Assembly: GCA_015659815.1 (NCBI GenBank)
Contig: DQME01000184.1
Location: forward strand, 1-52,147
Length of the DNA stretch: 52,147 nucleotides
Reading direction: 5' to 3'
Source of the DNA: Gammaproteobacteria bacterium
GTDB taxonomy: Bacteria; Pseudomonadota; Gammaproteobacteria; PS1; Pseudothioglobaceae
Shown here in pieces: positions 7,270 through 47,344 of this stretch; position 1 is the stretch's first letter, and every line of letters starts with the position of its first letter. A program made the position numbers and the translations under genes. The notes below the pieces were generated by a model. That model was not told the DNA's origin, did not search any database, and saw nothing but the letters and a program-made list of their open reading frames with translations.

Positions 7270-7285
7270 TTAATAATTACAAAAA

Positions 7286-9758: not shown

Positions 9759-9813
9759 TCCGGTTTAATAATTAAAGTTGTAGCGTGGCTACATTAACTC
9801 TACACAAAGACCC

Positions 9814-10788: not shown

Positions 10789-10798
10789 GGAGGAACTC

Positions 10799-14495: not shown

Positions 14496-14512
14496 TAAGA
14501 TTAAGATTACAT

Positions 14513-15736: not shown

Positions 15737-15746
15737 CAATACTTCA

Positions 15747-26635: not shown

Positions 26636-26641
26636 AAATTC

Positions 26642-27820: not shown

Positions 27821-27919
27821 ATATTATTATGTTCTAAAAAAACTCGTATATTACACAGAAATCTATACAATGTCACCGATAGTGGCTTTATTAATACAGT
27901 CAAAATAATTAAACCCTAA

Positions 27920-28648: not shown

Positions 28649-28659
28649 GTGGCCTAATA

Positions 28660-29553
28660 ATGGGATACCTGTTTTCTACTATAGCTGTAGCATTGTGGGC
28701 ATTTAATTTTATTATCGCTGTTATAGCTAATAATCAAATATCAGCAATTGAGCTTTCTTTTTATCGATGGCTTGTAGCACTCATTATTCTTATACCATGG
28801 ATTATTAAACTAATTCCCAAGATTGATATTGTCATTTCAAATTGGAAATATATTGTTATACCCGCAGTGTTCGGTGTTAGTATCTTTAATACAGCGTTGT
28901 ATATGGCTGCACATTACACATCATCCTTTAATCTTTCACTTATTGGAATAAGTGCCCCTATCTTAGTTATTATTATCAATAGATTTGTATTTAGAGCTCA
29001 TTACTCTAAAGCACTATGGGTTGGCGTGCTTACCGCTACTGTCGGAGTTTTGATGCTAATTAGCAAGGGCGATTTGTATGCACTTATAGGCCTTAACTTT
29101 TCCATGGGGGATTTATTAATGCTTATATCTGCTCTCTCTTGGGGGGTATACACCGTAACCCTAGAACACAAGCAACCAACAATTTTTAGTCAGATCGAAT
29201 ATTTAGCACTGATTGTTGTTTTCGGATTTTTACTATTGATCCCAGCCTTTTATTGGCAAGTTAGCAGTCATGGATACAGTCGATACAGTTCAGAGGTAGG
29301 ACTTATGGTACTGTATTTAGGTGTTTTCCCTTCTGTAGTATCTTTTTACAGCTGGAACAAGTCAATTGAAATAATTGGAGCAACTCGGACCGGTGCAACA
29401 TATTACCTCATTCCTATTTTTGTATTTATTTATAGCAGTTTATTGCTTGAGGAGGAGATAACTTATGTAGCATTATTAAGTTTTTTGTTGATATTCTCAG
29501 GGCTGCTAACCATACACTTCACAAGGGACACCTTACAAAGAAACGGCCTTTAG
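28660..29553 (+). CDS. EamA/DMT-family transporter
   Basis: 297 aa, about 10 TM helices in two repeats. Starts 11 nt after the preceding gene. Confidence 0.8.
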   Translation: MGYLFSTIAVALWAFNFIIAVIANNQISAIELSFYRWLVALIILIPWIIKLIPKIDIVISNWKYIVIPAVFGVSIFNTALYMAAHYTSSFNLSLIGISAPILVIIINRFVFRAHYSKALWVGVLTATVGVLMLISKGDLYALIGLNFSMGDLLMLISALSWGVYTVTLEHKQPTIFSQIEYLALIVVFGFLLLIPAFYWQVSSHGYSRYSSEVGLMVLYLGVFPSVVSFYSWNKSIEIIGATRTGATYYLIPIFVFIYSSLLLEEEITYVALLSFLLIFSGLLTIHFTRDTLQRNGL

Positions 29554-31646: not shown

Positions 31647-31675
31647 CTAATTAATTGTTCACGGAGGCTTGTCTA

Positions 31676-33214
31676 ATGTCGGCAAAAAGAGGTAAAAGAA
31701 ATGGTGGCAGGGCAGCAAAAATTGCTCACAGAAAGAAGACATCTCAAATAGAAGCGCCTAAATTTTTAACTCGCAATATTCCTTGCTATGATTTACTAAA
31801 TGAAGATGAGTTGGTTCGTATCGAAGACCATGCTGAATGGATACTTAAAGAGAAAGGTATTGAGTTTTGGGATGATGATGAAACTCTAGAGCTGTTCAAG
31901 GGGGCTGGTGCAACAGTTAAAAAAAATACAGTATTTTTTGATAAAGGGCATGCAAGAGACTTATGTAAAACAGCCCCGAGAGAGTTCGAAATGCATGCAA
32001 GAAACTCTAAAAGATCAACTATTTTTGGTGGTAATAGGCTTGTTCTGGGTCCCGCATATGGTTCCCCTTTTGTGTACGACTTAAAGAGAGGAAGAAGACA
32101 GGGAACAATGGAAGATTTTAATAATTTAGTTAAACTTACCCATATGACTCCCTGGCTTCATCACACCAGCGGCACTGTTTGTGAGCCGGTAGACATACCA
32201 GTCAATAAGAGGCACTTAGATATGGTTTACTCCCATATCAAATATTCTGATAAACCTTTTATGGGTTCTGTCACTGCCACTGAGCGTGCTGAGGACTCAA
32301 TAAAAATGGCCCGTATTGTTTTTGGTGAAGAGTTCATGAATTCAAACTGTGTAATTCAGGGAAACATAAACGTTAATTCGCCCCTAGTTTATGACAACAC
32401 CATGACTGGAGCATTGAAGACATACGCTAGAGCAAACCAAGGTGTTGTAATCACTCCGTTCATTCTTGGTGGGGCAATGTCTCCGGTGACCATGCCTGCA
32501 GCAATTGCCCAAGCACATGCTGAAACTATGGTAGGTGTCGCTTTAACACAACTAATTCGTCCAGGTTCTAGTGCTGTGTATGGTAATTTTTTAACAACGA
32601 TGGACCTCAAGTCTGGTGCTCCGACATTTGGTACACCAGAATCTTCACTAGCCACGCTCGCGGTTGGACAGATTGCAAGAAGGCTGGGGCTCCCTTTTAG
32701 AGCTGGGGGCCATTACACAGCCTCAAAAGTTACTGATGCGCAATCAATGCAGGAGTCTGCTGACTCAATGTATCCAGCTTTTCTGGCGGGAGCTAACTTT
32801 ATACATCAGGCAGCAGGATGGTTAGAGGGAGGACTGGTGGTTGGCTATGAGAAATTTATTATTGATTCTGAGCGCCTAGGCATCCTGCACAGAATAGGGG
32901 AAGGCATGACTATCGATGAAAACACTCTTGCTTATAGTGCTTATCGTGAAAACTCACCTGGAGAGAATTTTTTAGGAACACAGCATACTATTGAAAACTT
33001 TGAAAATGCTAACTTTCGTTGTGAAATGGCTGACAACAATTCTTTTGAGCAGTGGGCTGAGGACGGCTCTAAAAACTCTGAGCAGCGAGCATATGAGCGC
33101 TGGAATCAGATGCTAGAGGAGTACGTTGAGCCACCTTTAGATGAGTCAATAGATGAAGAGTTGATTGACTTTATAGCCAAAAAGAAAGAGGGTATGGCAG
33201 ATGAATGGTATTGA
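31676..33214 (+). CDS. MttB-superfamily (trimethylamine methyltransferase family) protein, non-pyrrolysine type; probable quaternary-amine (glycine betaine-type) methyltransferase
   Basis: I prefer the ATG at 31676 (GGAGG 8 nt upstream) over the ORF-track TTG at 31655. The basic N-terminus KRGKRNGGRAAKIAHRK and the about 510-aa length are typical of marine MttB homologues. No in-frame TAG. Confidence 0.85.
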   Translation: MSAKRGKRNGGRAAKIAHRKKTSQIEAPKFLTRNIPCYDLLNEDELVRIEDHAEWILKEKGIEFWDDDETLELFKGAGATVKKNTVFFDKGHARDLCKTAPREFEMHARNSKRSTIFGGNRLVLGPAYGSPFVYDLKRGRRQGTMEDFNNLVKLTHMTPWLHHTSGTVCEPVDIPVNKRHLDMVYSHIKYSDKPFMGSVTATERAEDSIKMARIVFGEEFMNSNCVIQGNINVNSPLVYDNTMTGALKTYARANQGVVITPFILGGAMSPVTMPAAIAQAHAETMVGVALTQLIRPGSSAVYGNFLTTMDLKSGAPTFGTPESSLATLAVGQIARRLGLPFRAGGHYTASKVTDAQSMQESADSMYPAFLAGANFIHQAAGWLEGGLVVGYEKFIIDSERLGILHRIGEGMTIDENTLAYSAYRENSPGENFLGTQHTIENFENANFRCEMADNNSFEQWAEDGSKNSEQRAYERWNQMLEEYVEPPLDESIDEELIDFIAKKKEGMADEWY

Positions 33215-33281
33215 GCTTGTATTTGATTCTTTTTTGAATTAACATTTTAGTTTTGGTTGTTTATATATTTAGGAATCCATT

Positions 33282-35696
33282 ATGAAAGATAATGCAAGAG
33301 TTGTTGTTATCGGGGGTGGTGTAGTTGGCTGTTCAATTCTATTTCACCTCGCTAAGATGGGTTGGAAAGATGTCGTTTTACTTGAAAGGAATGAACTAAC
33401 TTCTGGCTCAAGCTGGCATGCTGCCGGTTCATTTCATACAGTGAGTTCTGACCCTAATGTTTCTAAACTTCAAGATTACACAATCAGCCTTTATAAAGAA
33501 ATTGAAGAAACCTCTGGCCATTCAATCAGTATGCACAAAACAGGAGGCTATTACTTAGCCTCAAACCAGAATTGGCATGACTATCTAAAGCGAGAACGCT
33601 CTAATGCAAGATCATTAGGCTTGAATCAAGAGTTTGTGTCTCTAGATGAGGTTGTCGAAAAGCATCCATTAATCAATCCTGATCATTACGTTGCCGCTCT
33701 TTGGGATCCATCTGATGGCGATATTGATCCTTCAGGAGTTGTTTACGCATATGCAAAATCGGCTCGTGTACATGGGGCTGAGTTTTATACTCACACTCCA
33801 GTCATTGAAACCAACCAGCGACCTGACGGTTCTTGGGATGTTGTTACTGAGAAAGGCAATATTCATGCAGAGTACATAGTTAATGCTGGCGGTCTTTGGG
33901 CGCGTGAAGTTGGTCGTATGTCTGGAATTCATTTACCTGTTGTCCCAATGGAGCACCATTATTTAATTACTGAAGAAATTGAACAAATTGCCAATTTAAC
34001 AGATGGACACCGATTACCAAGTTGTATTGATTTTGAGGCGAATATTTATACTCGTCAAGAAAATACTGGGATGCTGTTGGGGACTTATGAACCCCGATCT
34101 ACACCATGGTCTTTGGACGGCACACCACAAACTTTTGGGCATGATCTACTTGAGCCAGATTTGGATCGTATTGCGGATCGATTGGAGCTAGCTTTTGAGC
34201 GTATTCCTGCACTAGGAACAGCCGGTATTAAAAATATTATTAATGGGCCATTTGTTTTCTCTCCTGATGGAAATCCAATGGTTGGACCAGTTCCAGGCAT
34301 GAAAAACTACTGGACAGCTGTTGGTGTTATGGCAGGTTTTTGTCAAGCGGGAGGTGTTGGTAAAACGTTGGCTGAATGGATGATTGAAGGAGAACCCTCT
34401 GTGGATGTGTGGGCAATGGATATTGCACGTTTTGGTGATTTTGCAACCCCTGAGTGGGGGGTTATTAAGTCTTCTGAAAATTATGAACGCCGCTTTGTAA
34501 TGACTTTTCCTAATGAGACGCTGCCTAAAGGAAGGCTTCAGAAAACAACGTCAATATACGATCGCCTAACTCAAAAAGGCGCTGTGTGGCAAGATACTTT
34601 TGGTCTTGAAAATGCACTTTGGTTTGCTAACTCTCCAGAGGATGCTTATGAAGAACCAACATTCCACAGATCAAGATCTCATGACTATGTAGCTAAGGAA
34701 GTAGAAGCTGTAAGAGAGTCTGTTGGAGCAATTGAAGTGGCGAACTTTGCTAACCATAAGTTTACGGGTAAGGGAGCTAAAGCCTTTTTAGAGATGGTTC
34801 TTGCGGGCCGCATTCCAAACCAAGGAAGGGTTAATTTATCGCCTATGCTCCTAGAGAGTGGCAAGCTCAATGGAGACTTGACAGTAGCATGTATTGATGA
34901 AGAAACCTATTATTTATTCGGATCCAGCGCCGTTCAAAACATGCATCTTCGATGGTTTGACAAGCACCTTGAGGGAGTTCAAGATGTTGTCTATAAAAAC
35001 ATGACAGATGATTTTCATGGTATTGCAATATCGGGTCCAAAATCTAGGGAATTGTTATCAAAGCTTACCCGAGAAGACGTCAGTTCTGAAGTTTTTAAAT
35101 TCCGAGATATAAGAGATACTTTTATAGGCGGGGTCCCAGCACTATGCGTAAGGATTTCATTTACAGGTGAGCTTGGCTATGAAATTTATGTTGCCCCTCA
35201 GTACCAATTAAAACTCTTTGAGGCGATAGAAGAGGCTGGAGCAGGCCTTGGTCTTAAATGGTTTGGTGGAAGGGCATTAATGTCAATGAGGCTGGAGAAA
35301 AGTTGGGGCGCATGGGCAATGGACTTTAGACCTGACTTTACATTAATGGAATCAGGACTTGATTTTTTTGTGGATTGGAATAAAGAGTTTATCGGTAAAA
35401 AAGCATCCTTAGTAGAGAAAAAGAAGGGTCCAAATAAAAAGCTTTCCGTCATACAAATAGATACCGAAACTGACGTTAGTGGTGATGAGGCTGTAATGCA
35501 TAATGGGGAATGTATTTCCTATATTACTTCTGGAGGGTACGGGCATTCGGTTAAAAAATCTCTTGCGATGACCTATCTTCCAGTTGATTTAATTAACTCC
35601 AATACAAAGCTTGAAGTAGAAATACTGGGTGAGTTTCATAAGGCTAGTGTGGTTGTTGAGCCTCTATATGATCCTAGTGGTTCGAAAATGCGATAA
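33282..35696 (+). CDS. Dimethylglycine/sarcosine dehydrogenase family flavoprotein (FAD domain plus GcvT-like folate domain)
   Basis: VVVIGGGVVGCS dinucleotide fold, GSSWHAAG (covalent-FAD His context) and a C-terminal aminomethyltransferase-like domain. 804 aa. Confidence 0.85.
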   Translation: MKDNARVVVIGGGVVGCSILFHLAKMGWKDVVLLERNELTSGSSWHAAGSFHTVSSDPNVSKLQDYTISLYKEIEETSGHSISMHKTGGYYLASNQNWHDYLKRERSNARSLGLNQEFVSLDEVVEKHPLINPDHYVAALWDPSDGDIDPSGVVYAYAKSARVHGAEFYTHTPVIETNQRPDGSWDVVTEKGNIHAEYIVNAGGLWAREVGRMSGIHLPVVPMEHHYLITEEIEQIANLTDGHRLPSCIDFEANIYTRQENTGMLLGTYEPRSTPWSLDGTPQTFGHDLLEPDLDRIADRLELAFERIPALGTAGIKNIINGPFVFSPDGNPMVGPVPGMKNYWTAVGVMAGFCQAGGVGKTLAEWMIEGEPSVDVWAMDIARFGDFATPEWGVIKSSENYERRFVMTFPNETLPKGRLQKTTSIYDRLTQKGAVWQDTFGLENALWFANSPEDAYEEPTFHRSRSHDYVAKEVEAVRESVGAIEVANFANHKFTGKGAKAFLEMVLAGRIPNQGRVNLSPMLLESGKLNGDLTVACIDEETYYLFGSSAVQNMHLRWFDKHLEGVQDVVYKNMTDDFHGIAISGPKSRELLSKLTREDVSSEVFKFRDIRDTFIGGVPALCVRISFTGELGYEIYVAPQYQLKLFEAIEEAGAGLGLKWFGGRALMSMRLEKSWGAWAMDFRPDFTLMESGLDFFVDWNKEFIGKKASLVEKKKGPNKKLSVIQIDTETDVSGDEAVMHNGECISYITSGGYGHSVKKSLAMTYLPVDLINSNTKLEVEILGEFHKASVVVEPLYDPSGSKMR

Positions 35697-35744: not shown

Positions 35745-37061
35745 ATGAATTTTAGTAACAATAAAAGACACCAACCAAAAATTAAGGTTGGCTCTAGTGA
35801 GGTAGAGGATATTTATAGCCTCAATAAGCATACGCTGGGTCCTGGAAACTTAGCTGAATCAGAATGGAAAGAGGCTGGTTTACCTAGCCCAAATATGACC
35901 AATATACATGAGTACCGATTAAAAAGAGTTCGCGACAAACTCAAGAAATTTGATTGCTCTGGAATTCTGCTCTATGACCCCCTCAACATACGCTATGCAA
36001 CGGATAGTACAAACATGTCGATATGGACATCACACAACGCTACGCGCTACGCATTAGTGATGACAGAAGGACCTGTAATAGTTTTCGAGTTTGACGGGCA
36101 TGAATTTCTATCAAATCATAACTCATTAATAACAGAGGTAAGACCAGCCAAAACCTATTTGTATTTTGCGGCTGGTGAATATAGTAGGAATCGAGCTAAA
36201 ATATGGGGCGATGAGGTTGCAGAAATTGTAGCTAGATACGGCTCTGGAAATAAACGACTGGCGCTAGATCATTGCGCTCCTGAAGGTATTCATGAGTTAC
36301 ATAGCCATGGTCTGGAGCTATTCAATGGTGAAGAGGTGATGGAACTAGCAAGGTTGATTAAGTCAGAAGATGAAATCAACGCTATGAGGCGTTCTATCTA
36401 TGCGTGTGAAAAATCTATAGATACTATGCGTACCTATTTCAAGCCAGGTATTTCGGAGCAAGAGTTATGGGGTCACTTTCAGATGGAGTCAGTCTCTAGA
36501 GGTGCAGAATGGATTGAGACGCGCCTTCTTGCTGCGGGACCTAGAGCTAATCCTTGGTACCAAGAGTGCTCATCACGCCCAATACAGAATGGGGAGCTAA
36601 TGAGTTTTGATACTGATCTGGTTGGTGCATATGGTTACTGTACTGATATGTCTCGCTGCTGGCTGTGTGGCGATGAGGCACCAAACCCAAAACAAAAAGA
36701 TATCTATACAAAGGCCTATGAACAAGTTAAACATAATATTGAGTTATTGCGTCCAGGAATCACTTTTAAGGAGCTTTCATTTTCTTCTAAAGAGTATCCC
36801 AAGGATGAGTTTCGACATTATTCGGTTCAGTACCACGGGGTAGGTCTATGTGACGAATACCCCTGCATACCTTTTACTTGGGAGTGGGACAATAACAGCT
36901 ACGATGGCACAGTCAAGCCCGGTATGGTTTTATGTGTCGAAAGCTATGTCGGTAGGCTTAACGGGGGGCCAGGTGTAAAATTAGAGGAACAAGTTTTAAT
37001 AACTGAAAATGGATATGAATTGTTGACTAGCTATCCCTTTGAATCTAATTTATTGCTATAG
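35745..37061 (+). CDS. dddP: DddP-type dimethylsulfoniopropionate (DMSP) lyase (M24-fold)
   Basis: Long blocks matching characterised DddP as I recall it: DPLNIRYATDSTNM, EWIETRLLAAGPRANPWYQEC, SFDTDLVGAYGYCTDMSRCW, YHGVGLCDEYP and KLEEQVLITENGYELLTSYPF. 438 aa. Confidence 0.8.
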   Translation: MNFSNNKRHQPKIKVGSSEVEDIYSLNKHTLGPGNLAESEWKEAGLPSPNMTNIHEYRLKRVRDKLKKFDCSGILLYDPLNIRYATDSTNMSIWTSHNATRYALVMTEGPVIVFEFDGHEFLSNHNSLITEVRPAKTYLYFAAGEYSRNRAKIWGDEVAEIVARYGSGNKRLALDHCAPEGIHELHSHGLELFNGEEVMELARLIKSEDEINAMRRSIYACEKSIDTMRTYFKPGISEQELWGHFQMESVSRGAEWIETRLLAAGPRANPWYQECSSRPIQNGELMSFDTDLVGAYGYCTDMSRCWLCGDEAPNPKQKDIYTKAYEQVKHNIELLRPGITFKELSFSSKEYPKDEFRHYSVQYHGVGLCDEYPCIPFTWEWDNNSYDGTVKPGMVLCVESYVGRLNGGPGVKLEEQVLITENGYELLTSYPFESNLLL

Positions 37062-37070
37062 TAGTATTCA

Positions 37071-38153
37071 ATGAGTCTAAGAACAATCCCAAAAACAATG
37101 AGTGCAATATTAACTACTGGCCATGGTGGTTTTGAGGTGCTTGAATTTCGTAACGATGTGAAAGTTCCTAAGCCTAAATCAGATCAAGTATTGATTAAAG
37201 TGTTAGGGGCTGGTATCAATAATACAGATATAAATACTCGCACTGCTTGGTATTCAAAATCAGTCACTGGTGAGACTAACTCCAAAGATTCACAAGGCTT
37301 AGATGACGATGGAAGTTGGTCAGGAGAGCCTATTAACTTTCCAATCATTCAGGGTGCTGATTGTTGTGGTGAGATTGTTGCCGTTGGAGATAACGTTGAG
37401 ATTGAACGAATTGGCGAGAGAGTTTTGGTTAGAACAATGCAGCAATATGCAGTGGACTATAGGCCCTATGAGTGCTGGACTATGGGATCAGAGTGTGACG
37501 GTGCTTTTGCACAATATATGGTTGCTTTTAGTGATGAGAGTTTTAAGGTTGAGAGTGATTGGAGTGATACAGAATTAGCATCTATTCCTTGTGCATACTC
37601 TACTGCAGAAAACTTACTGGAACGCTCAGCTGTTAAAGAGAGCGAGATTGTTCTGATAACAGGTGCATCTGGTGGCGTTGGTTCTGCTGCAATCCAACTG
37701 GCAAAAAGACGTGGTGCATCAGTAATTGCTGTAGCTAGCAAAGCAAAGGCTTCTGAAGTAAAAAAAATAGGCGCAGACAAAATCATTAATAGAGAGGACG
37801 GTATAAGATTTTCTATAAATAATGAAAGCGCTGATGTTGTTATTGATTTAGTCGCTGGACAGGAGTGGGGAGAGCTTCTTGACGTTCTAAAAAAAGGAGG
37901 TAGATACGCAGCAGCTGGTGCGATTGCAGGACCAATTGTAGAGCTTGATGTTAGGACACTCTACCTGAAAGACTTGACACTGATGGGCTGTACTTTTCAG
38001 GATAGCCAGGTATTTGAGAATTTGATTGGCTATATCGAAAGAAATGAAATTAAACCTTTGGTTGCGAAGAGGTACCCACTTAAAGAAATTGTGAATGCTC
38101 AAAAAGACTTTTTAGCAAAAAAATATGTAGGAAAGCTGGTTCTCGTGCCTTAA
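37071..38153 (+). CDS. Medium-chain dehydrogenase/reductase (quinone-oxidoreductase-like), NAD(P)H-dependent
   Basis: GroES-like N-domain and cofactor motif ITGASGGVGSAAIQLAKRRGA. 360 aa. Starts 9 nt after dddP. Confidence 0.8.
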   Translation: MSLRTIPKTMSAILTTGHGGFEVLEFRNDVKVPKPKSDQVLIKVLGAGINNTDINTRTAWYSKSVTGETNSKDSQGLDDDGSWSGEPINFPIIQGADCCGEIVAVGDNVEIERIGERVLVRTMQQYAVDYRPYECWTMGSECDGAFAQYMVAFSDESFKVESDWSDTELASIPCAYSTAENLLERSAVKESEIVLITGASGGVGSAAIQLAKRRGASVIAVASKAKASEVKKIGADKIINREDGIRFSINNESADVVIDLVAGQEWGELLDVLKKGGRYAAAGAIAGPIVELDVRTLYLKDLTLMGCTFQDSQVFENLIGYIERNEIKPLVAKRYPLKEIVNAQKDFLAKKYVGKLVLVP

Positions 38154-38228
38154 TAGAATAAATCAATGAAGATTACACTGATTGATGTTTTAGGTAATTC
38201 TGTAAAGATATTTATGCAGGTTATTATA

Positions 38229-38573
38229 TTAAATTGGCCTATTTATACCCATTTGAAACACCAAAAGTAGGCACCCATTTTTGGTATGCGAAGAGTGCAC
38301 ACTGCCGGGCTCAAACGTTATAAAGTCGCCCTTCCTGAATACTGCATTGTCTGAATCTACCAATTCGCCCTCCAGAACTATAAATTCTTCAAAGCCTGTA
38401 TGTTCATGAGGAATAGACTGGGCCCCAGGTTCTAACTTTAATATATAGCTCCCAAAACCTGTATCCTTGTCAAAGCTGACCAGGTGCCAACTCATTTTAT
38501 CAATAATCGATCCATATCTGTCAAAGGGTTTAAATTCAACTTCAAATGGGTTAGTACACTTTCTTTTATCCAT
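38229..38573 (-). CDS. Single-domain cupin protein (ChrR-like/cupin_7 type)
   Basis: Canonical cupin motif 1, G-x5-HEH-x3-E-x6-G (PGAQSIPHEHTGFEEFIVLEG), and motif 2 around PGSVHSSH. I prefer the ATG at 38573 (114 aa) over the ORF-track TTG at 38651. Confidence 0.7.
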   Translation of the reverse strand: MDKRKCTNPFEVEFKPFDRYGSIIDKMSWHLVSFDKDTGFGSYILKLEPGAQSIPHEHTGFEEFIVLEGELVDSDNAVFRKGDFITFEPGSVHSSHTKNGCLLLVFQMGINRPI

Positions 38574-38738
38574 AGTAGTTTGTTTGGTCTTTATTCGAAT
38601 AATTATATGTGGTTGCTTAATCAATATTTTTATAAATATAATTAAAGTCAACCTTTGATTATTATTATTAATATTTAATTATTGAATAATAATAACAAAA
38701 GTGTACAATTTATTTTATTTATTTCTGATACAAACAAT

Positions 38739-40187
38739 ATGGCTAAATTATCTAAAAATTTCATTGCTGGTGAGTGGGTTTCAGGGGACAGCACAATATC
38801 GAACATTAACCCTTCAGACACGAATGATGTGATTGGAGAGTTTGCTCAAGCAAGTACTTCACAATTGGAAGATTCGCTTAGCTGTTCTCACATAGCTCAA
38901 AAAGTATGGGCTGCAACTGGGCTGGAGCAGCGTCAAGCTGTATTGATGAGTATTGGGGAAGAGATGATGGCACGTAGCTCTGAGTTAGGAGAATTGTTGT
39001 CTAGAGAGGAGGGCAAACCTTTGGCAGAAGGCAAGGGCGAGGTCTATAGAGCTGGGCAGTTTTTTACTTACTATGCGGCTGAAGTATTGCGACAGAGTGG
39101 AGATACAGCAGACTCGGTAAGGCCTGGCATTGAGATTGATGTTCGTCGAGAGGCAATGGGGACTGTAGCTATTATATCTCCATGGAACTTTCCTACCGCA
39201 ACAGCAAGTTGGAAGATTGCCCCCGCCCTAGCATTTGGGAATGCTGTTATATGGAAGCCAGCAAACCTTACACCTGCAAGTGCTGTTGCGCTGACTGAAA
39301 TTATCTCCAAACAAGACATGCCTAAGGGCCTATTTAACTTAGTCATGGGTTCTGGTTCATCTATAGGCCAGGCCTTAGTAGAGAACCCTATGGTTGATGC
39401 TATAAGCTTTACTGGTTCATATGATGTTGGACGAATAGTTGCTGCTGCTGCTGCAAAAAATTTGACTAAATTTCAATTAGAGTTAGGATCTAAGAACCCT
39501 TTGGTTATTATGGATGATGCTGATATAGATGTTGCTGTTGCTGCAGCGACAGGTGGTGCATTTGGTAGCACTGGACAAAAATGTACGGCCTCCTCAAGGC
39601 TAATTGTTCATACCGACATTCATGATGAATTTATTGAACGTATGAAGCTCTCAACATCGGCACTTAAGGTAGGCCATGCACTTGTTGAGGGAACACAAAT
39701 CGGTCCCGCTGTTAGTGAAAAACAACTTAAATCTAATCTTGACTATATGACCTTGGGCAAAAAAGAAGGTTGTGAGGTTGTTTGTGGAGGGCGCAGTCTT
39801 GAGCTTGCGACTCCTGGACATTATATGCAACCAGCTTTACTGGTTGGTGGTAGTAACTCTATGAGACTTAACCGTGAAGAGTTGTTTGCACCGATTGCAT
39901 GCGTAATTAAGGTTGCAGACTACGATGAAGCACTTATAGTCGCAAATGACACGGAGTTTGGCCTGGTTTCTGGAATTATTACTAAATCCCTATCGAGGGC
40001 AACTCACTTTCGCAGGAACTCTGAAAGCGGCTGTGTCATGGTAAACCTTCCTACCGCTGGTACTGACTACCATGTTCCTTTTGGGGGAAGAAAAAATTCA
40101 AGCTTCGGTCCAAGAGAACAGGGTCAATATGCAAAAGAGCTATACACGCAAGTAAAAACGTCTTATATCTCTTCCGGTAATCCATAA
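38739..40187 (+). CDS. NAD(P)+-dependent aldehyde dehydrogenase, alpha-ketoglutarate-semialdehyde dehydrogenase-like
   Basis: I prefer the ATG at 38739 over the TTG at 38682. Motifs PWNFP, ELGSKN and GQKCTASSR. The N-terminal FIAGEWV...NPSDTNDVIGEF resembles the KGSADH (YcbD/GucD) branch. Confidence 0.85.
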   Translation: MAKLSKNFIAGEWVSGDSTISNINPSDTNDVIGEFAQASTSQLEDSLSCSHIAQKVWAATGLEQRQAVLMSIGEEMMARSSELGELLSREEGKPLAEGKGEVYRAGQFFTYYAAEVLRQSGDTADSVRPGIEIDVRREAMGTVAIISPWNFPTATASWKIAPALAFGNAVIWKPANLTPASAVALTEIISKQDMPKGLFNLVMGSGSSIGQALVENPMVDAISFTGSYDVGRIVAAAAAKNLTKFQLELGSKNPLVIMDDADIDVAVAAATGGAFGSTGQKCTASSRLIVHTDIHDEFIERMKLSTSALKVGHALVEGTQIGPAVSEKQLKSNLDYMTLGKKEGCEVVCGGRSLELATPGHYMQPALLVGGSNSMRLNREELFAPIACVIKVADYDEALIVANDTEFGLVSGIITKSLSRATHFRRNSESGCVMVNLPTAGTDYHVPFGGRKNSSFGPREQGQYAKELYTQVKTSYISSGNP

Positions 40188-41173
40188 TGTCAGAACAGAA
40201 ATTATTTATAGATGGGCTCCAATATAATTCTTGGAGTGAGGAAATATTTAGCCAAATTCACGAGGGCGGACTTAGTGCGGTTCACGTAACAATTAGCTAC
40301 CATGAAGATTTCCAAGAAACAGTACAAAATATTATTGATTGGAATAGATACTTTATCAAGTACTCTGACCTAATATTTCTAGGTCGCACTGCTGAAGATG
40401 TCAGGAAGGCGCAAAGGGAGAGTAGAACTGCTATTTTCTTTGGATTTCAAAACTGCTCCCCTATTGAGGATAATATTGGTTTGGTCGAAATTTTACACAC
40501 CCTAGGTGCCAGATTCATGCAACTCACATACAATAACCAAAGCTTACTGGCTACGGGCTGTTACGAGAAAAAAGATTCTGGCATAACTAGAATGGGTAAA
40601 CAGGTTATAAAAGAAATGAACAGGGTGGGACTGGTGGTTGATATGAGTCACTCAGCTGAGCGTTCAACACTTGAAGCAATTGAAGTATCCGAAAGGCCAA
40701 TAGCTATTACGCATGCTAACCCATCTTTATGGCATCCTGCACTTAGAAATAAGTCGAGCGAGGTTTTAAGAGCGCTAGGGTCTAGCGGCGGAATGGTCGG
40801 CTTTTCAATTTACCCCCACCATCTAAAAGATGGATCAAAATGTACAATAGAAAGTTTTTGTGGGATGATAGCTGAGACTGCTGACCTTGTTGGCATTGAA
40901 AGCATAGGAATAGGGAGTGATTTATGCCAAAATCAGCCCGACAGTGTGGTTCAATGGATGCGCAACGGCACCTGGTCAAATGATCTAGATTTTGGCGAGG
41001 GCTCTGCTTCACTTGCCGGCTTCCCTGAACAGCCGTCCTGGTTTAAGGATAATAGAGATTTTTCTAATATTGAGTCAGGACTTAAGAGTGTTGGAATGGA
41101 TAGCAAAAATATAGAAGCCGTAATGGGTACTAACTGGCTGAGGTTTTTTGAATCTTCTTTTGGGTCTGCCTAG
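40187..41173 (+). CDS. Peptidase M19 (renal dipeptidase) fold protein with a substituted metal site
   Basis: Colinear with M19 over the full length (VVDMSH, IAITHA, IGIGSD). However, IDGHND is replaced by IDGLQY and GVEGGH by GFQNCS. The start shares one base with the ALDH stop (TAATG). Confidence 0.8.
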   Translation: MSEQKLFIDGLQYNSWSEEIFSQIHEGGLSAVHVTISYHEDFQETVQNIIDWNRYFIKYSDLIFLGRTAEDVRKAQRESRTAIFFGFQNCSPIEDNIGLVEILHTLGARFMQLTYNNQSLLATGCYEKKDSGITRMGKQVIKEMNRVGLVVDMSHSAERSTLEAIEVSERPIAITHANPSLWHPALRNKSSEVLRALGSSGGMVGFSIYPHHLKDGSKCTIESFCGMIAETADLVGIESIGIGSDLCQNQPDSVVQWMRNGTWSNDLDFGEGSASLAGFPEQPSWFKDNRDFSNIESGLKSVGMDSKNIEAVMGTNWLRFFESSFGSA

Positions 41174-41183
41174 CAATAACTCA

Positions 41184-42884
41184 ATGACAAAAGATGTGAA
41201 GTCAAACGAATTGATTTTGCGTGACCCCGGCAAGGTCATGCGTCTTGAGAGGATGGGTTCTTCCTTCCAAACTCGGTTGAGTTTTATGCGTACACTCATT
41301 CGTAGAATGTCTACAGATAAGTGGCGATTTGAGAGACTAAGAAGCGATATTGACAGTGAGGGTTATGGGGTCAGTGTTTATGCTGCCCATACGCCTGAAA
41401 GAACTTACTCTTTAGTTGCCTTTACACAAAGCATACCCAACGATATGAGGACTGACAGGGTTATCGCTGAGGTGTGGGACGCTACATTCAGTTTGTATGA
41501 CGGGGTGCCATCTCTTGAGGATATAGAGTATCTTTCTAAGAATACACCGAAACAAGAAGCTGGCCGATTCAGACCAAGTGAGCTGGTCTTAGCGAGAGCC
41601 AACAAAAGTTTAAGACTGTTTGAGCATATAGCATCTTCACTCTCTAATGGGGAACAACCGGACATTGATTTGCTTGCGTCGGTTGGCTATTTAATGAGGA
41701 CTACAGCAGTTTATGGTAGCGGAAAGTTTGGTTGCGCTGATCGTGCTAAATTGCATGACCGTGAAGAATGTAAGGTGTCATTTCATATTGAATTGCTGGC
41801 AGTGTATTTGATACGATGGTTCACTATAGACTTAGTTGAAACTATTGCCCAAAAGAGAGGTGGAAAAAAGGCTGTTAAGCTTGAACACAATATAAGTAAA
41901 TTCATCGGTGTTGGTAACTCAACAGGACTAGGTATGGCCCCTTTTTTATTGAAACATCCAGTTCTTATTCATAACTGGGTATCAGCAAAAGAGTCCTCTT
42001 TGGGTAGAGTTAGAAGTATTAAGAATCCCACAGATTACAGTACTGAGGTATTTTTGCAAAGCCTGAAACAGGCATCCCAACATATCAGAGAATGGAACGT
42101 TGAAGATGAAGAGCAGACGCTAAGAATTGAACGCCTTAGGGCTGAAGTTGATAAGCTTGAATATTGGTGTGTCGCCAATAATATATTAAAAAAAATGTCT
42201 CCATGGAACAGTATTTATAAATTCGTTGAGGATAACTTTTCATACGAATGTCAAGAACTGACGGTCTCTTTACTGTTAGAGCCGCACGGTGAGTTAATTG
42301 ATGAGCTTGGTGACACTATGTTGGCAACTGATGACCCAGTATTCGATTCAAACATGCAACTTAAAGAGTTAACAAATATACTTAATGAGCATTATTCTTG
42401 GGCTACTAAGATTGATTTTTCTTCTGCCGAATCACAACACCACTTTTGGTACTATTCAGAAGATAAGTTAGAACCCAGATTTGGATCTATTGATACGGAC
42501 GATGGAGTTGAACAAGAGATGCCCTTGGCAATAGCTAGAGAGATAAGCGATCTACACAACAAACTGAAAACCTTCTCAAATACAATGTGTACTGGTGAGT
42601 TTGCAATGCGATATCCACAGTTCCGACACATAATACGTAGGGCTCAAAATACAGCCGTTAGGCCTTATGCAGAAGTGCAAGACAACTTGTTGAATAAAAG
42701 TATGCGTCCTCTTGACTTGTTACGCTTTAAGCTCGCTTTTTTTGGGGCATCAAAGTTTGACCCTAAGTCTGATTTATGGACAAGGATTTCAATGTATCAG
42801 GGTGCACCATTGCCAAAACAGCTAAATGACATAGACCATGATAACTGGGCATTTCCAATTAAACCGATTAAGGAAATTCAATGA
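41184..42884 (+). CDS. Hypothetical protein, 566 aa, no family recognised
   Basis: Long uninterrupted ORF. The ATG at 41184 lies 10 nt after the upstream stop, and I prefer it to the TTG at 41148, which would overlap the M19 gene. Ordinary soluble-protein composition, with no TM segments and no nucleotide-binding or metal motifs that I can identify. Confidence 0.7.
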   Translation: MTKDVKSNELILRDPGKVMRLERMGSSFQTRLSFMRTLIRRMSTDKWRFERLRSDIDSEGYGVSVYAAHTPERTYSLVAFTQSIPNDMRTDRVIAEVWDATFSLYDGVPSLEDIEYLSKNTPKQEAGRFRPSELVLARANKSLRLFEHIASSLSNGEQPDIDLLASVGYLMRTTAVYGSGKFGCADRAKLHDREECKVSFHIELLAVYLIRWFTIDLVETIAQKRGGKKAVKLEHNISKFIGVGNSTGLGMAPFLLKHPVLIHNWVSAKESSLGRVRSIKNPTDYSTEVFLQSLKQASQHIREWNVEDEEQTLRIERLRAEVDKLEYWCVANNILKKMSPWNSIYKFVEDNFSYECQELTVSLLLEPHGELIDELGDTMLATDDPVFDSNMQLKELTNILNEHYSWATKIDFSSAESQHHFWYYSEDKLEPRFGSIDTDDGVEQEMPLAIAREISDLHNKLKTFSNTMCTGEFAMRYPQFRHIIRRAQNTAVRPYAEVQDNLLNKSMRPLDLLRFKLAFFGASKFDPKSDLWTRISMYQGAPLPKQLNDIDHDNWAFPIKPIKEIQ

Positions 42885-43597
42885 ATAATGAGTTTATTAG
42901 GATTTCTCTTAACGAAATATTGTTCTACTTTACAAGGGCCGGATTTGGAGTTAATGCGCCAATAGGGTTATCAGAAGACTTTGCACGTAGTAATGTCTGG
43001 CTAGCGGAAAATGGCTTTGACCCATCCTCCTGTAGCTATTTTGCATTAGACTGTTTAGACAATAGAAAGAGTTCCCTTATAACTAAGTTTTCAGATAGCA
43101 ATACTATTGTTTGTGGTAATAAAAAATATTTGTCTGCTTTCCAAGCATCTGTAGTTGCTGCTGACTGGATCACAACTGATAGTAAAGATGAACTTAAAAT
43201 AGTTAATGTAGATTCTCCCTTTATAGTTCTGGCACAGTTAGGAGCAACCCTAGCCGAAGACCTACAAGTAAAATGGTCAGACGATAAGGGGGATAAATAC
43301 CTAGTCAACCTCAATAAAAATGAAAGATGGGAAATTGTTAGTAGTTCTGTTAACCTAATTGAACATAGCAAAGGCGCAAACATTTCAATTAAAAGTCCAG
43401 CATGCAAAGATATAGACAATAATGCAGCAGTTAAAAAATTTGACACAAAGCATGGCAGGCAAAATATATTGCAAACAGGTGTCGAAGTTAAGGACAGATG
43501 GGGTTTAGTGTATGAATACTTTTCTCGATGTCTAGTAAAATCAAACACTAGGTCGCGAGAATCTGGTGCAGGTGCAGGCCTTGTGGACAATGATTAA
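42881..43597 (+). CDS. Hypothetical protein, 238 aa, no family recognised
   Basis: ATGA overlap with the preceding gene. Ends in a Gly/Ala-rich acidic tail, SRESGAGAGLVDND. The long antisense ORF over it has junk-like composition. Confidence 0.65.
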   Translation: MNNEFIRISLNEILFYFTRAGFGVNAPIGLSEDFARSNVWLAENGFDPSSCSYFALDCLDNRKSSLITKFSDSNTIVCGNKKYLSAFQASVVAADWITTDSKDELKIVNVDSPFIVLAQLGATLAEDLQVKWSDDKGDKYLVNLNKNERWEIVSSSVNLIEHSKGANISIKSPACKDIDNNAAVKKFDTKHGRQNILQTGVEVKDRWGLVYEYFSRCLVKSNTRSRESGAGAGLVDND

Positions 43598-43611
43598 TAT
43601 TAGGTGAACAT

Positions 43612-44613
43612 ATGAACACAACTACTTTAAATAAAACAGAAATCGAACAAATAACCATTCAGGCCCTTACAAACTCTGGGGCTAGTTTGATTGCAGCATC
43701 CTCAATGGCAAGAGGGGTAGTAGCTGCTGAAATGGATGGAATATCCAGTCATGGATTGATATATGTTCCAATTTATTGTGAGCACTTAGTGTGCGGCAAG
43801 GTTAGTCCCAATGCTGAACCATCCGTCAATATTACTGCTCCCAGCGCTATAACTGTCGACGCTGATTGTGGCTTTGCACATCCTGCCATCGATGCTGGGT
43901 TTAACCTGATGATTGAGAGTGCAAAGAAGAACGGGTGTGCAGCTATGTCAATAAAAAACTCTTACAATTGTGGTGTTCTGGGATATCACACTGAGCGCAT
44001 AGCCAGAACTGGGTTGACCGGTTTAGGATACACCAATGCACCTGCATCTATTATGCCTGTCGGAGGTGACACACCTGTAATTGGCACTAACCCTTTTTCT
44101 CTGGCATTGCCCAATGGTAAGGGGGGAGTAGCTTTCGTTATTGATCAATCTGCCAGTGTTGTAGCCAAGAGTGAAATAAAAATGCATGCCCTTGCTGGTA
44201 AGCCAATTCCTGAGGGATGGGCATATGACTCTGATGGCAATATAACAACAGACGCTGAAAAAGCTATGCTTGGTTCTATGGCTCCAGTTGGCGGCTATAA
44301 AGGTTTTGGGACGGGACTTATGGTTGAATCATTCGCTGCAGTAATGTCTGGAGCGTCATTGGGGAAAGACGCTAGCCCGTTTGCCGGAACCTCTGGTGGT
44401 CCACCAAAAACTGGTCAATTTTTCTTCGCTGTCTCGCCTGAACTATTCTCACACGGTCTGTTCGCAGAAAAAGTAGAGTCTCTAACTGAATCAATAGAAT
44501 CTCAGGATGGTGCCCGTTTACCCGGCACTGGAAGGTTTGTTAATAGAGATACTAATGAAAGGAGTGGAGTTGAGGTTAGCACAGAGCTACTAGAAAAAAT
44601 ACGGTCTATTTAA
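43612..44613 (+). CDS. Ldh2-family (malate/L-lactate dehydrogenase type 2) NAD(P)H oxidoreductase
   Basis: 333 aa. Blocks GISSHGL, GTNPFSLA, APVGGYKGFGTGLMVE and C-terminal RLPG are typical of the ComC/DpkA/ureidoglycolate dehydrogenase family. AGGTG lies 5 nt upstream of the ATG. Confidence 0.85.
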   Translation: MNTTTLNKTEIEQITIQALTNSGASLIAASSMARGVVAAEMDGISSHGLIYVPIYCEHLVCGKVSPNAEPSVNITAPSAITVDADCGFAHPAIDAGFNLMIESAKKNGCAAMSIKNSYNCGVLGYHTERIARTGLTGLGYTNAPASIMPVGGDTPVIGTNPFSLALPNGKGGVAFVIDQSASVVAKSEIKMHALAGKPIPEGWAYDSDGNITTDAEKAMLGSMAPVGGYKGFGTGLMVESFAAVMSGASLGKDASPFAGTSGGPPKTGQFFFAVSPELFSHGLFAEKVESLTESIESQDGARLPGTGRFVNRDTNERSGVEVSTELLEKIRSI

Positions 44614-44614
44614 T

Positions 44615-45991
44615 TTAACATTCAGTCAAACTAACAGCCAACCCTCCAAGAGATGTTTCTTTATATTTTGTTGACATATCTAGCCCCGTCTTCCTCATAG
44701 CCTCTACACATCTGTCTAAGGAGATTAGGTGGTCACCGCTCTCTCTGAGCGCAAGTGAACTAGCCGTATAAGCTTTAATTGCGCCAAACCCATTACGCTC
44801 AATGCACGGAACCTGAACAAGGCCGTTTACTGGGTCACAGGTCATGCCCAAGTGGTGTTCTAAAGACATTTCAGCTGCATTCTCTATCTGTTTACTGTTT
44901 CCGCCCCTAACTTCACAAAGAGCGGCGGCTGCCATTGCCGCTGCCGACCCAACTTCTCCTTGACAACCTACTTCAGCGCCAGATATGGAGCTGTTGTACT
45001 TAATCAAACCACCTATAGCGGCGGCTGTTAGTAAAAACTGCCTGATTTGCTCGTTACTAGCAGACCTGTGCTTATAGAAAAAGTATAGAGTTGCTGGCAG
45101 AACTCCGGCTGCTCCGTTTGTAGGCGCTGTAACAACCATATGTCCTGCAGCATTTTCTTCATTAACGGCCATAGCATAAGCAAAAAGCCAGTCACTTGTA
45201 CTAGTGTGGCCCGAATCCTCACTTAGACTCTGGTGCAACCTTTTAGCACGCCTTACTGTGTTTAAACCTCCAGGCAAGATTCCTTCTACCGCTAGTCCAC
45301 TCTCGACGCAAGACTTCATTGCTAGCCAAATCTTATCAATTCTGTTATCCAGATCATCTTTAGAGACATGGCATAGCTCGTTAGCCTCTTTCATTTCCCA
45401 AATTTTCTTATTGCTTTTATCTGACATTTCAAGCATCTCTTGTGCATTTTTGAAAGGAAACGGATGCGCTAGTTGGCCCTCTTCATCAAGTGGAGCCTTG
45501 AGATTATCAATCTCTTCCAGGGTCGATATAAATCCTCCTCCAATTGAAAAATACGTTTCCGATAGTACGACTTCATTTGAATCGTTGTGTAGCTCAAAGA
45601 CCATACCGTTGGGGTTCTGCTTTAACGAATTCTTTGTATCAAATATGATGTCAGTGGGTGGCGAAAAGGAGCATCGCTTATCTTTTCCTATAACAACTGA
45701 ATCAGAATTCCAAATACTATCAATAAGTTCATCCATTTGTTCGTCAACAACAGTGCTCGGTAAGTAACCGTTAATACCAAGTGTAACAGCTCTATCAGTT
45801 GCGTGACCCTTGCCTGTATATGCTAGCGAGTCTTTTAATGTACAGGTAATTTTGTATTCTGATTCTGGATTAATAGCAATAAACTTTGCAGTATTGTGTA
45901 TAAAACTATTAGCCGCAACCATAGGTCCCATAGTATGAGAGCTCGACGGGCCAATGCCTACCTTGAATAAGTCAAATACACTAATAAACAC
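44615..45991 (-). CDS. sdaA: L-serine ammonia-lyase (iron-sulfur, single-chain)
   Basis: GTG start preceded by GGAGGAGAGG. N-terminus (M)[22 protein letters not shown], as in E. coli SdaA. 458 aa. Confidence 0.92.
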
Positions 45992-46093: not shown

Positions 46094-47344
46094 CTATTTA
46101 ATTTCGTAGTCATCTAAATGCTTACCTTTTTTTATTCTTGCTGCTGTTCCATTTGACTCTTTTTTAAACTCATGCGAGCTGACGCTCTGTGTAAGTAAAT
46201 CAGCCCTAAGGTCGATGGTTGAAAGGCCTGCCTGTCCACAACTACGCATACCATCAAATCTCGCCAAAGCTTTTATTTTTTTATTAGCTAGGTGTGGCTG
46301 CAGTTTGTTCATGTCACTAGGGACACACTCATAGTCCAAAGTCAAGTATCCCGACCCCTCTGCAAATTGTAGTAATTCAGCCCCCTTACTGGTTCTCGCT
46401 ATAACCGTGTTAGTTCCTAAGTCATTATTAATCATTTCCTTGGTTGGAGTACATTCAGGCCATGTATCGCCGGTAGAAATATCTGCCCCCTCACCAGTTC
46501 CGTCTGGACAAACTCTGCAGCGCCACGGCATATGCCATTGGGAAGAGTCTGTGCCCCAAAAATCTAAGTAACTTTTTTCAATGCGACTACCGTTATTAAG
46601 TTTTATTGAAGTAGGGCCAGGGCACCCGTTCCCTCTATAGCTAACACTGTCAACTTCTTCTTCTCTCACACCTTCTGACTGGAAGAAATTACTCATAGCA
46701 AATGGTGGAAAAAAGCCACCACAGAAGGGGGAAAGCATTAACGGTATATACTTATCTACCCTGGGGTCTTTTTTCGCTAACAATCGCATAGCAGAAATAT
46801 CGCAAGGCTTAGCCACAAGGGCCACCCTTATACCTTCATCCAAAACCTTTTTAATTTTGTCTAGTGGGGAGGTGGATGCATAAATAGAAGCACAGTTTTC
46901 GTTGACTTCAGACAATGTGTAACTAATAGTTGAATGGCCAAAATATGGCTTTAAACCGCTTGGCCCAACATGCAACACAGCATCGACCATTTTAGACTCT
47001 ATTAGAAACCCTGCAAGTGCAGTTAGCACACCCCCAGTGGCCGACTTATGCCGAACAGAATCGTTACTAGCGTGTGCTGCACAAATCCGTTCTATGGGCC
47101 CCCAAACTGGGTCTATTTGTACCCCTTCAGATAGGTATTTATTTGGCATTCCTGACTGTACAACTCCAGGACAAAAACTACTCAAATACCTGAGCTCTTT
47201 CTCGGTTAAGCACTTATTCTCTTTAGGCCTTAGACCTCCAACGCTTAGCTCTATATTAACCTTTTCAGAAAAAACTGAAGCGCACAACCCGCAGCCAATA
47301 CAGAGACCCTCATTTATTATTTGTTGAATACTACTTGCTGCCAT
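46094..47344 (-). CDS. FrhB-like (coenzyme F420 hydrogenase/dehydrogenase beta-subunit family) Fe-S flavoprotein, function unknown
   Basis: N-terminal ferredoxin-like CIGCGLC plus an FCPG Cys. A central flavin-binding-type block SATGGVLTAL. A C-terminal Cys cluster CRVCPDG. 416 aa. Confidence 0.7.
   Translation of the reverse strand: MAASSIQQIINEGLCIGCGLCASVFSEKVNIELSVGGLRPKENKCLTEKELRYLSSFCPGVVQSGMPNKYLSEGVQIDPVWGPIERICAAHASNDSVRHKSATGGVLTALAGFLIESKMVDAVLHVGPSGLKPYFGHSTISYTLSEVNENCASIYASTSPLDKIKKVLDEGIRVALVAKPCDISAMRLLAKKDPRVDKYIPLMLSPFCGGFFPPFAMSNFFQSEGVREEEVDSVSYRGNGCPGPTSIKLNNGSRIEKSYLDFWGTDSSQWHMPWRCRVCPDGTGEGADISTGDTWPECTPTKEMINNDLGTNTVIARTSKGAELLQFAEGSGYLTLDYECVPSDMNKLQPHLANKKIKALARFDGMRSCGQAGLSTIDLRADLLTQSVSSHEFKKESNGTAARIKKGKHLDDYEIK

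Follow-up and report, generated by a model that had tools for sequence, protein, structure and literature searches.

Among the closest described systems to the locus analysed here are the dimethylglycine-demethylase (dgc) operons of Pseudomonas, Vibrio natriegens and Ralstonia. These operons are headed by a particular subtype of Peptidase_M19 amidohydrolase, followed by a 177-residue DUF5943 or '4-vinyl reductase'-like protein and by DgcAB-ETF; where DgcA shares an operon with this hydrolase, it is annotated as N-methylproline demethylase. Further points of comparison are the Ldh_2 family of oxidoreductases, the domain family DUF3726 and, as regards operon logic only, the Puu pathway, which joins an aldehyde dehydrogenase and an amidohydrolase, and ectoine degradation, which uses DoeA/DoeB, a transaminase and a semialdehyde dehydrogenase. 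We analysed a stretch of 52,147 nt from a genome of the Pseudothioglobaceae (contig DQME01000184.1; hereafter the window), and concentrated on two overlapping genes, here called X and Y, that lie between a homologue of the same M19 hydrolase and an Ldh_2 gene:

41184..42884, + strand: X, ATG start, 566 residues; member of an orphan family and presumed catalytic subunit
42881..43597, + strand: Y, 238 residues; probably a truncated, degenerate Ldh_2-fold/DUF3726 subunit
42881..42884, + strand: ATGA, overlap of the X stop and Y start codons, suggesting translational coupling

As in the P. aeruginosa operon PA5396-PA5397-dgcA-dgcB (pepD_hp_dgcAB_fixAB in V. natriegens), where the same M19 subtype stands first and is about 50% identical, the hydrolase beside X and Y has lost the HxD and Glu metal ligands, and genes for glycine betaine, dimethylglycine and sarcosine catabolism lie around it. 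The partners differ: a DUF5943-type protein, DgcAB and ETF in the dgc operons, and X-Y, an aldehyde dehydrogenase (ALDH) and an Ldh_2 enzyme in the window. PA5397 was considered as a homologue of X or Y and rejected, since this 177-residue DUF5943 or '4-vinyl reductase'-like protein is unrelated to both. We lean slightly towards reading X-Y as a heteromeric enzyme that helps to break down a betaine-type or N-methylated solute, in which X would be catalytic and the C-terminal tail of Y would form or gate the X site.

X and Y as one unit

Y directly follows X in all 76 loci that have sequence downstream of X, and in two further loci (L068 and L073) X and Y are a single reading frame. A first pass of open reading frame (ORF) calling and hidden Markov model (HMM) search detected Y in 60 of the 76, and a broader Y HMM found all the rest. 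At the X/Y junctions of these 60 first-pass loci, 37 have a 4-nt overlap and 7 a 1-nt overlap. Natural X~Y fusions are common, many representatives in an exhaustive search being 760-816 residues long, and the order is always X N-terminal and Y C-terminal. One fusion (P0220, 799 residues) carries DUF3726 at residues 584-644, two others (P0226 and P0230) end in ...GAGAGLSDND and ...GAGAGIVDND, and a Mesorhizobium plasmid encodes an 814-residue X~Y product annotated as 'DUF3726 domain-containing protein'. In the plasmid collection, each listed Y match lies beside or overlaps an X gene. A preliminary description of the window, made from the sequence alone, had noted the ATGA overlap, which we find at 42881-42884, and had proposed stoichiometric co-expression and possibly a complex. 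A complex is strongly supported by the adjacency across genomes, the kept overlaps and the natural fusions. Given the gene fusions and the universal adjacency, we conclude that X and Y very probably act as one functional unit, in the form of a physical complex.

An AAGGAA Shine-Dalgarno-like site lies 8 nt 5' of the Y start. An alternative TTG start for X at 41148 was rejected, since it would overlap the upstream gene and homologues of 565-566 residues speak against it. A 184-residue antisense ORF (43036-43590, - strand) lies wholly within Y; it is probably spurious, because the Y frame is under purifying selection. A scan of 38100-44800 for promoter and terminator consensus sequences found sites no more numerous than in shuffled sequence.

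X and Y are real genes under purifying selection. Comparing the window with L090 and L092, both close relatives from metagenomes, gives ratios of nonsynonymous to synonymous substitution rates (dN/dS) of 0.13-0.16 (X) and 0.14-0.16 (Y), not near 1; the flanking M19 and Ldh_2 genes give 0.08 and 0.12 in the same comparison. Homologues of X fill more than 8000 clusters at 90% identity in a word-indexed search, every named one being a hypothetical protein, and an exhaustive search returned 1415 clusters at 50% identity with E ≤ 1e-3. A scan of one genome per GTDB species with the X alignment (A3) found carriers in at least 599 species. They include Alpha- and Gammaproteobacteria, Actinomycetota (Gordonia, Acidimicrobiales), Poribacteria, Myxococcota and genomes labelled Deltaproteobacteria, and among them are SUP05/Thioglobus, many Rhodobacteraceae, Rhodospirillales, Hyphomicrobiales, Arenicellales and sponge-associated lineages. 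That the two ORFs are non-functional or mis-called, and their arrangement due to chance, has a negligible probability: nothing but the missing annotation favours it, and the dN/dS values, the thousands of homologues with invariant motifs and the synteny kept across phyla stand against it. We regard this reading as refuted by dN/dS together with the X-Y adjacency across loci.

Sequence and fold of the two chains

X belongs to no described family. It has no Pfam, NCBIfam or PDB-sequence match, a result common to searches with the sequence itself, with a profile and with 78 members of the family, and it has no counterpart in Ldh_2 enzymes. The preliminary description had seen no recognisable domain in either protein; this holds for X, for which no characterised family was matched, and not fully for Y, which has a sub-threshold DUF3726 match and an Ldh_2-like model. 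We found no transmembrane-like segment in X or Y (maximum Kyte-Doolittle 19-residue means 1.49 and 1.43), no cysteine cluster (five Cys each) and, in a regular-expression scan of both proteins, no Walker A motif GxxxxGK[ST], YGSGKFG having Phe after Lys. The claim that there is no GxGxxG was literally wrong, as GSGKFG occupies X residues 178-183, although a Rossmann fold is still undetected.

X and Y were modelled with AlphaFold as one concatenated chain of 804 residues, with natural fusions in the input alignment. The whole model has a pTM of 0.78, and in the X part pLDDT is ~96 over residues 10-560. A Foldseek search of the PDB and BFVD, made with the whole model and not domain by domain or against AlphaFold DB, gave no match for the X part; the best matches outside Y had E ≥ 0.37 and probability ≤ 0.06. 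In the model, X consists of an N-terminal alpha/beta region with a seven-stranded sheet (residues ~48-280), a helical middle (284-410) and a mixed C-terminal region (415-545). Conserved segments are D91-R-V-I-A-x-x-W-D99, Q124-E, R138-A-N-x-S-x-R144, G156-x-Q-P, G168-Y-x-x-R-T-T-A-V-Y-G-x-G-K-F-G183, G242-x-G-N-x-T-G-L-G-M-A-P-F254 followed by H258, W422-Y...K428-x-E-P-R432 and R514-x-K-L...F-G-A...D-P-x-S...W...R534, and about nine Arg are nearly invariant. Two glycine-rich elements stand out:

41715..41732, + strand: codons of the X Gly-rich loop G178-S-G-K-F-G183, after beta-strand 169-177
41907..41945, + strand: codons of the X motif G242-V-G-N-S-T-G-L-G-M-A-P-F254, a strand-loop-helix

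In the first, G178, G180, K181, F182 and G183 are invariant (alignment A3); the second is invariant or near-invariant (A3 and A2) and is, in the model, of the kind predicted to bind anions. The first is a literal GxGxxG after a beta-strand, and Foldseek with the whole model gave no Rossmann-like match. With these invariant elements and the many conserved Arg, X looks like a protein whose active site would take an anionic substrate or a nucleotide-type cofactor.

Y reaches DUF3726 (PF12525) with 20.9 bits over residues 9-48 (E 3.4e-4), just missing the cut-off of 22.1, and the Pfam model itself covers only about 73 residues. Fused or orthologous relatives pass it (P0220 with 68.6 bits, P0226 with 38.9), and orthologues of Y are annotated as DUF3726 in RefSeq. 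The Pfam description of the family includes a conserved N-E-L motif; correspondingly, S9-L-N11-E12-I-L of Y is invariant or near-invariant in an alignment of 26 Y sequences at 33-85% identity (A1). This motif, as NE(I/L), and the first ~40 residues of Y fit the model. Membership of Y in DUF3726 is thus likely by homology, despite the sub-threshold score.

42905..43024, + strand: Y residues 9-48 (SLNEILFYFTRAG...), DUF3726 core; counterpart of the first two helices of the Ldh_2 fold
43553..43594, + strand: codons of the Y tail, S225-R-E-S-G-A-G-A-G-L-V-D-N-D238 (tail sequence: SRESGAGAGLVDND)

Modelled alone, Y has a pLDDT of 88 and a pTM of 0.85, with low confidence in residues 231-238. Among the top 26 PDB matches of this model in Foldseek, 25 are described as Ldh_2-type enzymes, the other, 3uoe, being an unnamed dehydrogenase; probabilities are 0.75-1.00 (≥0.98 in 24), TMq 0.36-0.60 and E values down to 2e-4. 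The matches include 1v9n, 2g8y, AllD (1xrh, 4fjs, 4fju and 4h8a), YiaK (1nxu and 1s20), 1vbi, 1x0a, 1z2i, 3i0p, DpkA (1wtj) and ComC (2x06), and the Ldh_2 matches of the Y part were reproduced with the X+Y model. At the sequence level, Y has no Pfam match to Ldh_2 (PF02615), and hhalign of A1 against an Ldh_2 alignment (A4) gave a probability of 0.4%. Fused relatives show weak collinear Ldh_2 matches (E 0.022 with Pfam; E 9e-5 for P0355 in a 150-sequence search). The N-termini of Y homologues, comprising the 'S-L-N-E-I' helix and the next, align with Ldh_2 HMM positions 4-45, their C-terminal helix aligns with positions ~300-333, and the C-terminal domains of 800-940-residue fused relatives align with positions 4-140. 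Our data suggest that DUF3726 corresponds to the N-terminal part of an Ldh_2 fold that has degenerated.

Y thus resembles DpkA, AllD, YiaK and ComC in fold and in the order of its helices, and differs from them in its length (238 residues against about 340), its sub-threshold Pfam score, an additional Gly/Ala-rich acidic tail and its constant attachment to X, as a separate chain or fused. The catalytic residue of Ldh_2 enzymes is His44 of a conserved S-H-G motif (YiaK/AllD numbering). In low-confidence HMM alignments this position is Cys in one relative of Y (L083) and deleted in three (L039, L044 and P0355), and in the window Y the place reads, by eye, ENGFDPSS. As far as the models indicate, Y is a shortened Ldh_2-fold domain and, since its relatives lack the catalytic His, probably non-catalytic.

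The most conserved part of Y is its tail, in which S225, R226, G229-A-G-A-G233, V235, D236 and D238 are invariant in A1 and in which AlphaFold confidence is low. The SRxxGAGAG(L)xDxD-COOH end is kept from Gordonia to SUP05; in several orthologues the terminal DxD is missing and the last residues are ...SRRGAG(Y/PSD/PAD) or ...SRSGAGA. What had been described as an unusual Gly/Ala-rich acidic tail is a conserved functional motif and not an oddity. Because it occurs whichever hydrolase accompanies X-Y, the tail more probably serves X than the M19 partner.

The operon and its hydrolase

In the window, X and Y belong to an operon of five genes packed head to tail: ALDH, M19-like, X, Y and Ldh_2. 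The other three members are:

38682..40187, + strand: aldehyde dehydrogenase, first operon gene; Pfam Aldedh, E 2e-151
40187..41173, + strand: M19-like amidohydrolase of the PA5396/PDB 2I5G type; Pfam Peptidase_M19, 237.7 bits, E 2.4e-70
43612..44613, + strand: bona fide Ldh_2 oxidoreductase, last operon gene; Pfam Ldh_2, 1e-91

The true ALDH start is likely the ATG at about 38739. Its best NCBIfam matches, below the cut-off, are 2,5-dioxovalerate and alpha-ketoglutarate-semialdehyde dehydrogenases, and its stop overlaps the M19 start as TAATG. The closest PDB sequence to the Ldh_2 enzyme is DpkA, a delta1-piperideine-2-carboxylate reductase (1wtj, 150 bits) that is an imine reductase and N-methyl-amino-acid dehydrogenase. 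The best PDB match of the M19 copy is 2I5G, an 'amidohydrolase' of 325 residues (212 bits, almost full length); PA5396 (978 bp) encodes a protein of the same length, 325 residues.

The binuclear zinc site of M19 enzymes, as in human DPEP1 (renal dipeptidase), has as its ligands an N-terminal HxD, a bridging Glu and two His. In the window copy, HxD has become L-Q-Y (...IDGLQYNSW...) and the bridging Glu has become Gln (...GFQN...), with the two later His kept. Nearly all of 52 partner copies have D-(G/A/C/N)-L-Q-Y where the canonical motif is D-G-H-N-D, and GFQN replaces the bridging-Glu motif in 41. PDB 2I5G is also without His-x-Asp, having D-G-L-I-I, and has G-F-Q-N. The hydrolase and dehydrogenase between which the preliminary description had placed the pair are Peptidase_M19 and Ldh_2 proteins, the hydrolase being a metal-site-degenerate homologue that belongs to the same module as X and Y. 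The shared hydrolase ties the X-Y operon to N-methylated amino acid catabolism and not to a specific X-Y reaction.

The loss of three of the five canonical metal ligands across these 52 copies raises the question of whether X-Y is non-catalytic, an accessory, activator or scaffold that makes the degenerate M19 active or sets its specificity. The pseudoenzyme-like character of Y and the presence of M19 in at least 73% of X-Y loci would agree with such a role. We consider it quite unlikely: some X-Y loci have a non-homologous hydrolase (HDAC-like, Amidohydro_3) or none nearby; in dgc operons this M19 subtype does without X-Y, beside the unrelated DUF5943-type protein; and X, 566 residues long with invariant polar positions by the dozen, looks like an enzyme with an active site.

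The usual operon reads LysR | ALDH - M19-like - [BCCT] - X - Y - Ldh_2 or RidA, with the alpha-metal ligands missing from the M19-like member, and genes for MttB, a dimethylglycine-dehydrogenase-like (DMGDH-like) protein or M24 often lie beside it. Within 8 kb of X, the 78 loci contain:

M19-like: at least 57 loci
ALDH: 30
LysR: 23
Ldh_2: 20
BCCT: 19
DMGDH-like: 11
MttB: 10
M24: 8
OpuAC-type binding protein: 5
RidA: 3

These counts are lower bounds, because the ORFs of these loci were called crudely. Loci annotated in RefSeq repeat the pattern. Plasmid pPGA1_262 of Phaeobacter inhibens DSM 17395 has the order LysR | ALDH - 'membrane dipeptidase' - BCCT - hypothetical (X) - DUF3726 (Y), adjoining sarcosine-oxidase-family and Rieske/VanB genes; from ALDH to Y the locus tags are PGA1_RS18845, RS18840, RS18835, RS18830 and RS18825. 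A Pseudomonas plasmid carries the same set plus RidA. In Mesorhizobium, genes for MttB, a DMGDH-like protein, and GlxA and LysR regulators are followed by ALDH - M19 - X~Y - Ldh - ABC transporter. The operon BCCT gives no substrate, being about equally distant from the BetP, BetT, DddT, trimethylamine-transporter and CaiT structures. Candidate substrates that we weighed are choline, carnitine, creatine or creatinine, DMSP (dimethylsulfoniopropionate), proline or hydroxyproline betaine, taurine betaine or sulfonates, lactams and N-acetyl-polyamines.

The DpkA-like enzyme immediately downstream of Y bears on another explanation, in which X-Y would be an NAD(P)-dependent oxidoreductase. Here the X GxGKFG loop would bind the dinucleotide, and Y would either complete a composite site or, mimicking one protomer of an Ldh_2 dimer, dock the true Ldh_2 enzyme and so channel an imine that is unstable. 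X-Y would thereby dehydrogenate an N-methyl- or cyclic amino acid and offer a route other than DgcAB-type demethylation. This would account for the literal invariant GxGxxG after a beta-strand, the Ldh_2 fold of Y, the Ldh_2 genes here and elsewhere (20 of the 78 loci), an M19 partner common to dgc operons in which DgcA is annotated as N-methylproline demethylase, and imine-handling RidA in some operons. It is nevertheless unlikely, given that Foldseek with the whole model returned no Rossmann-like or other dinucleotide-binding structure, that Y relatives lack the catalytic His, that a true Ldh_2 is present in only about a quarter of loci and that hhalign of X or Y against the Ldh_2 alignment was not significant.

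In some genomes without the M19 partner, another hydrolase lies next to the pair, with at least one locus for each of two types: an HDAC-like deacylase gene overlaps the X start in L024 (8932-9960), and an Amidohydro_3 gene lies just after Y in L021 (12362-13816). This suggests non-orthologous replacement of M19 at the hydrolase step. On pSymB of Sinorhizobium meliloti, a distant paralogous set (L088, 8947-12393) has the order IclR - X' - Y' - M19' - ABC transporter - aminotransferase - SSADH - RidA. X' is 26% identical, Y' has no GAGAG tail, the aminotransferase is of class III and the transporter is annotated only as 'extracellular solute-binding protein'. This trio probably acts on a different substrate.

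The three unrelated amidohydrolase types that accompany X-Y, together with a conserved and flexible C-terminus ending in DxD-COOH, would also be compatible with a carrier function, in which the amine substrate would be loaded covalently onto the Y tail, oxidised by ALDH and released by the amidohydrolase. The analogues are LysW-type amino-group carrier proteins and gamma-glutamyl 'protecting-group' pathways, and the pairing of ALDH with an amidohydrolase recalls the Puu pathway. We hold this purely analogical reading to be very improbable: X shows no ATP-grasp or ligase signature, the terminal DxD is absent from several orthologues, and the paralogues have no tail at all. The likeness to the Puu and ectoine pathways lies in an amidohydrolase with an ALDH, to which the S. 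meliloti paralogue adds a class-III aminotransferase, a succinate-semialdehyde dehydrogenase (SSADH) and RidA; the X-Y core differs in having neither a glutamine-synthetase-like ligase nor the M24/AstE pair, and X-Y has no homologue in either pathway.

Around the operon, the window holds genes of methylated-amine catabolism, namely for an MttB-family methyltransferase, a DMGDH-like protein, M24, a reductase of the MDR type and a cupin, as well as L-serine dehydratase, GcvP and a GcvR-like ACT protein. At 31655-35696, the MttB-family methyltransferase gene, of the non-pyrrolysine type, adjoins the DMGDH-like gene, whose product has DAO and GCV_T domains; no corrinoid-protein gene was seen alongside, and several further genomes have these two genes close to X-Y. 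The stretch that immediately precedes the operon, 35745-38651, encodes an M24 protein closest to the dimethylsulfoniopropionate (DMSP) lyase DddP (461 bits, under the 600-bit cut-off), the MDR reductase, which resembles acryloyl-CoA reductases, and, on the opposite strand, a small ChrR-type cupin; this may be a DMSP/acrylate-related set. At 25634-29553, an AstE/AspA-type deacylase and an M24 hydrolase are encoded by genes that resemble doeB and doeA of ectoine degradation, together with an EamA transporter and an Asp/Glu-racemase-like (Amdase) protein. A 416-residue FrhB/FdhB-like Fe-S flavoprotein with an N-terminal 4Fe-4S motif is encoded at 46094-47344 (- strand), between L-serine dehydratase and gcvP, an arrangement kept in close relatives (L090 and L091). 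Further away, 5719-16736 is a nucleoside uptake and catabolism operon with an ABC ATPase, two permeases, cdd, deoC, deoA, deoB and add, and it includes a 788-residue ALDH with a long C-terminal extension.

Proposed role and significance

The preliminary description had suggested an enzymatic or substrate-channelling role for the pair. The invariant polar and glycine-rich motifs of X and the catabolic operon fit such a role. The data show that X and Y are real genes, form one unit, are under selection and belong to the operon, and they support the fold assignments; we infer catalysis by X, the part played by the tail and the class of substrate. According to the heteromeric-enzyme reading, X and Y would be two chains of one cytoplasmic protein, which in other bacteria is a single polypeptide of ~800 residues. 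X would carry the active site. Y, whose relatives lack the Ldh_2 catalytic His, would for that reason most likely be a structural or lid subunit, and its flexible tail, SRxxGAGAGLxDxD, may close over or complete the X site. Under LysR control, the operons would take up a betaine-type or N-methylated solute by way of BCCT, OpuAC-type or other ABC transporters, and X-Y would act before or after an amide- or ester-type hydrolase, usually the PA5396-type M19. The pathway may yield an aldehyde for the operon ALDH, and an imine or 2-oxo-acid-type intermediate for the DpkA-like Ldh_2 or RidA; its products would feed the adjoining dimethylglycine, glycine and serine catabolic genes.

Several observations weigh against this proposal. 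No cofactor or catalytic residue of X can be assigned, and the structural negative for X rests on the whole 804-residue model against the PDB and BFVD only. The tail is missing in the S. meliloti-type paralogue and in fusions of 840-940 residues, and therefore is not essential to the basic function of the fold. In roughly one locus in four, M19 is absent from the 8 kb around X. Transporter types differ between loci, so that several substrates may exist. In addition, we found no publications on X or Y in the literature on DUF3726, DUF5943, Phaeobacter genes and RefSeq product names. Nor are the X-Y genes dealt with in papers on how Vibrio, Pseudomonas, Ruegeria and Phaeobacter catabolise glycine betaine.

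A bolder version, which we put forward as a tentative possibility, is that X-Y and its partner amidohydrolase represent an unrecognised enzyme class with a new fold, performing a key C-N step in the breakdown of abundant betaine-type osmolytes. The step might be a demethylation, a deamination or a ring or amide opening, with the Y tail as a mobile active-site element, and the hosts would be SUP05/Thioglobus-type Gammaproteobacteria, uncultured marine lineages labelled Deltaproteobacteria and PS1 clade, roseobacters, sponge symbionts and rhizobia. If true, the carbon-nitrogen cycle of sea and soil would gain a route that it has so far lacked. Glycine betaine, choline, carnitine, proline betaine, DMSP and related quaternary amines or N-methylated osmolytes are major carbon, nitrogen and methyl currencies of the ocean, of soils and of habitats associated with hosts, and the maps of their catabolism are still incomplete.

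At least 599 species and thousands of marine metagenome contigs carry the X-Y module, which stands in tightly conserved operons with betaine-type transporters. Its carriers include the cultured, genetically tractable Phaeobacter inhibens DSM 17395, Ruegeria sp. TM1040 and Mesorhizobium. Once identified, the X-Y reaction would explain the PA5396-type 'dipeptidase' common to dimethylglycine operons, give a function to a large orphan family and provide a new marker gene for osmolyte turnover.

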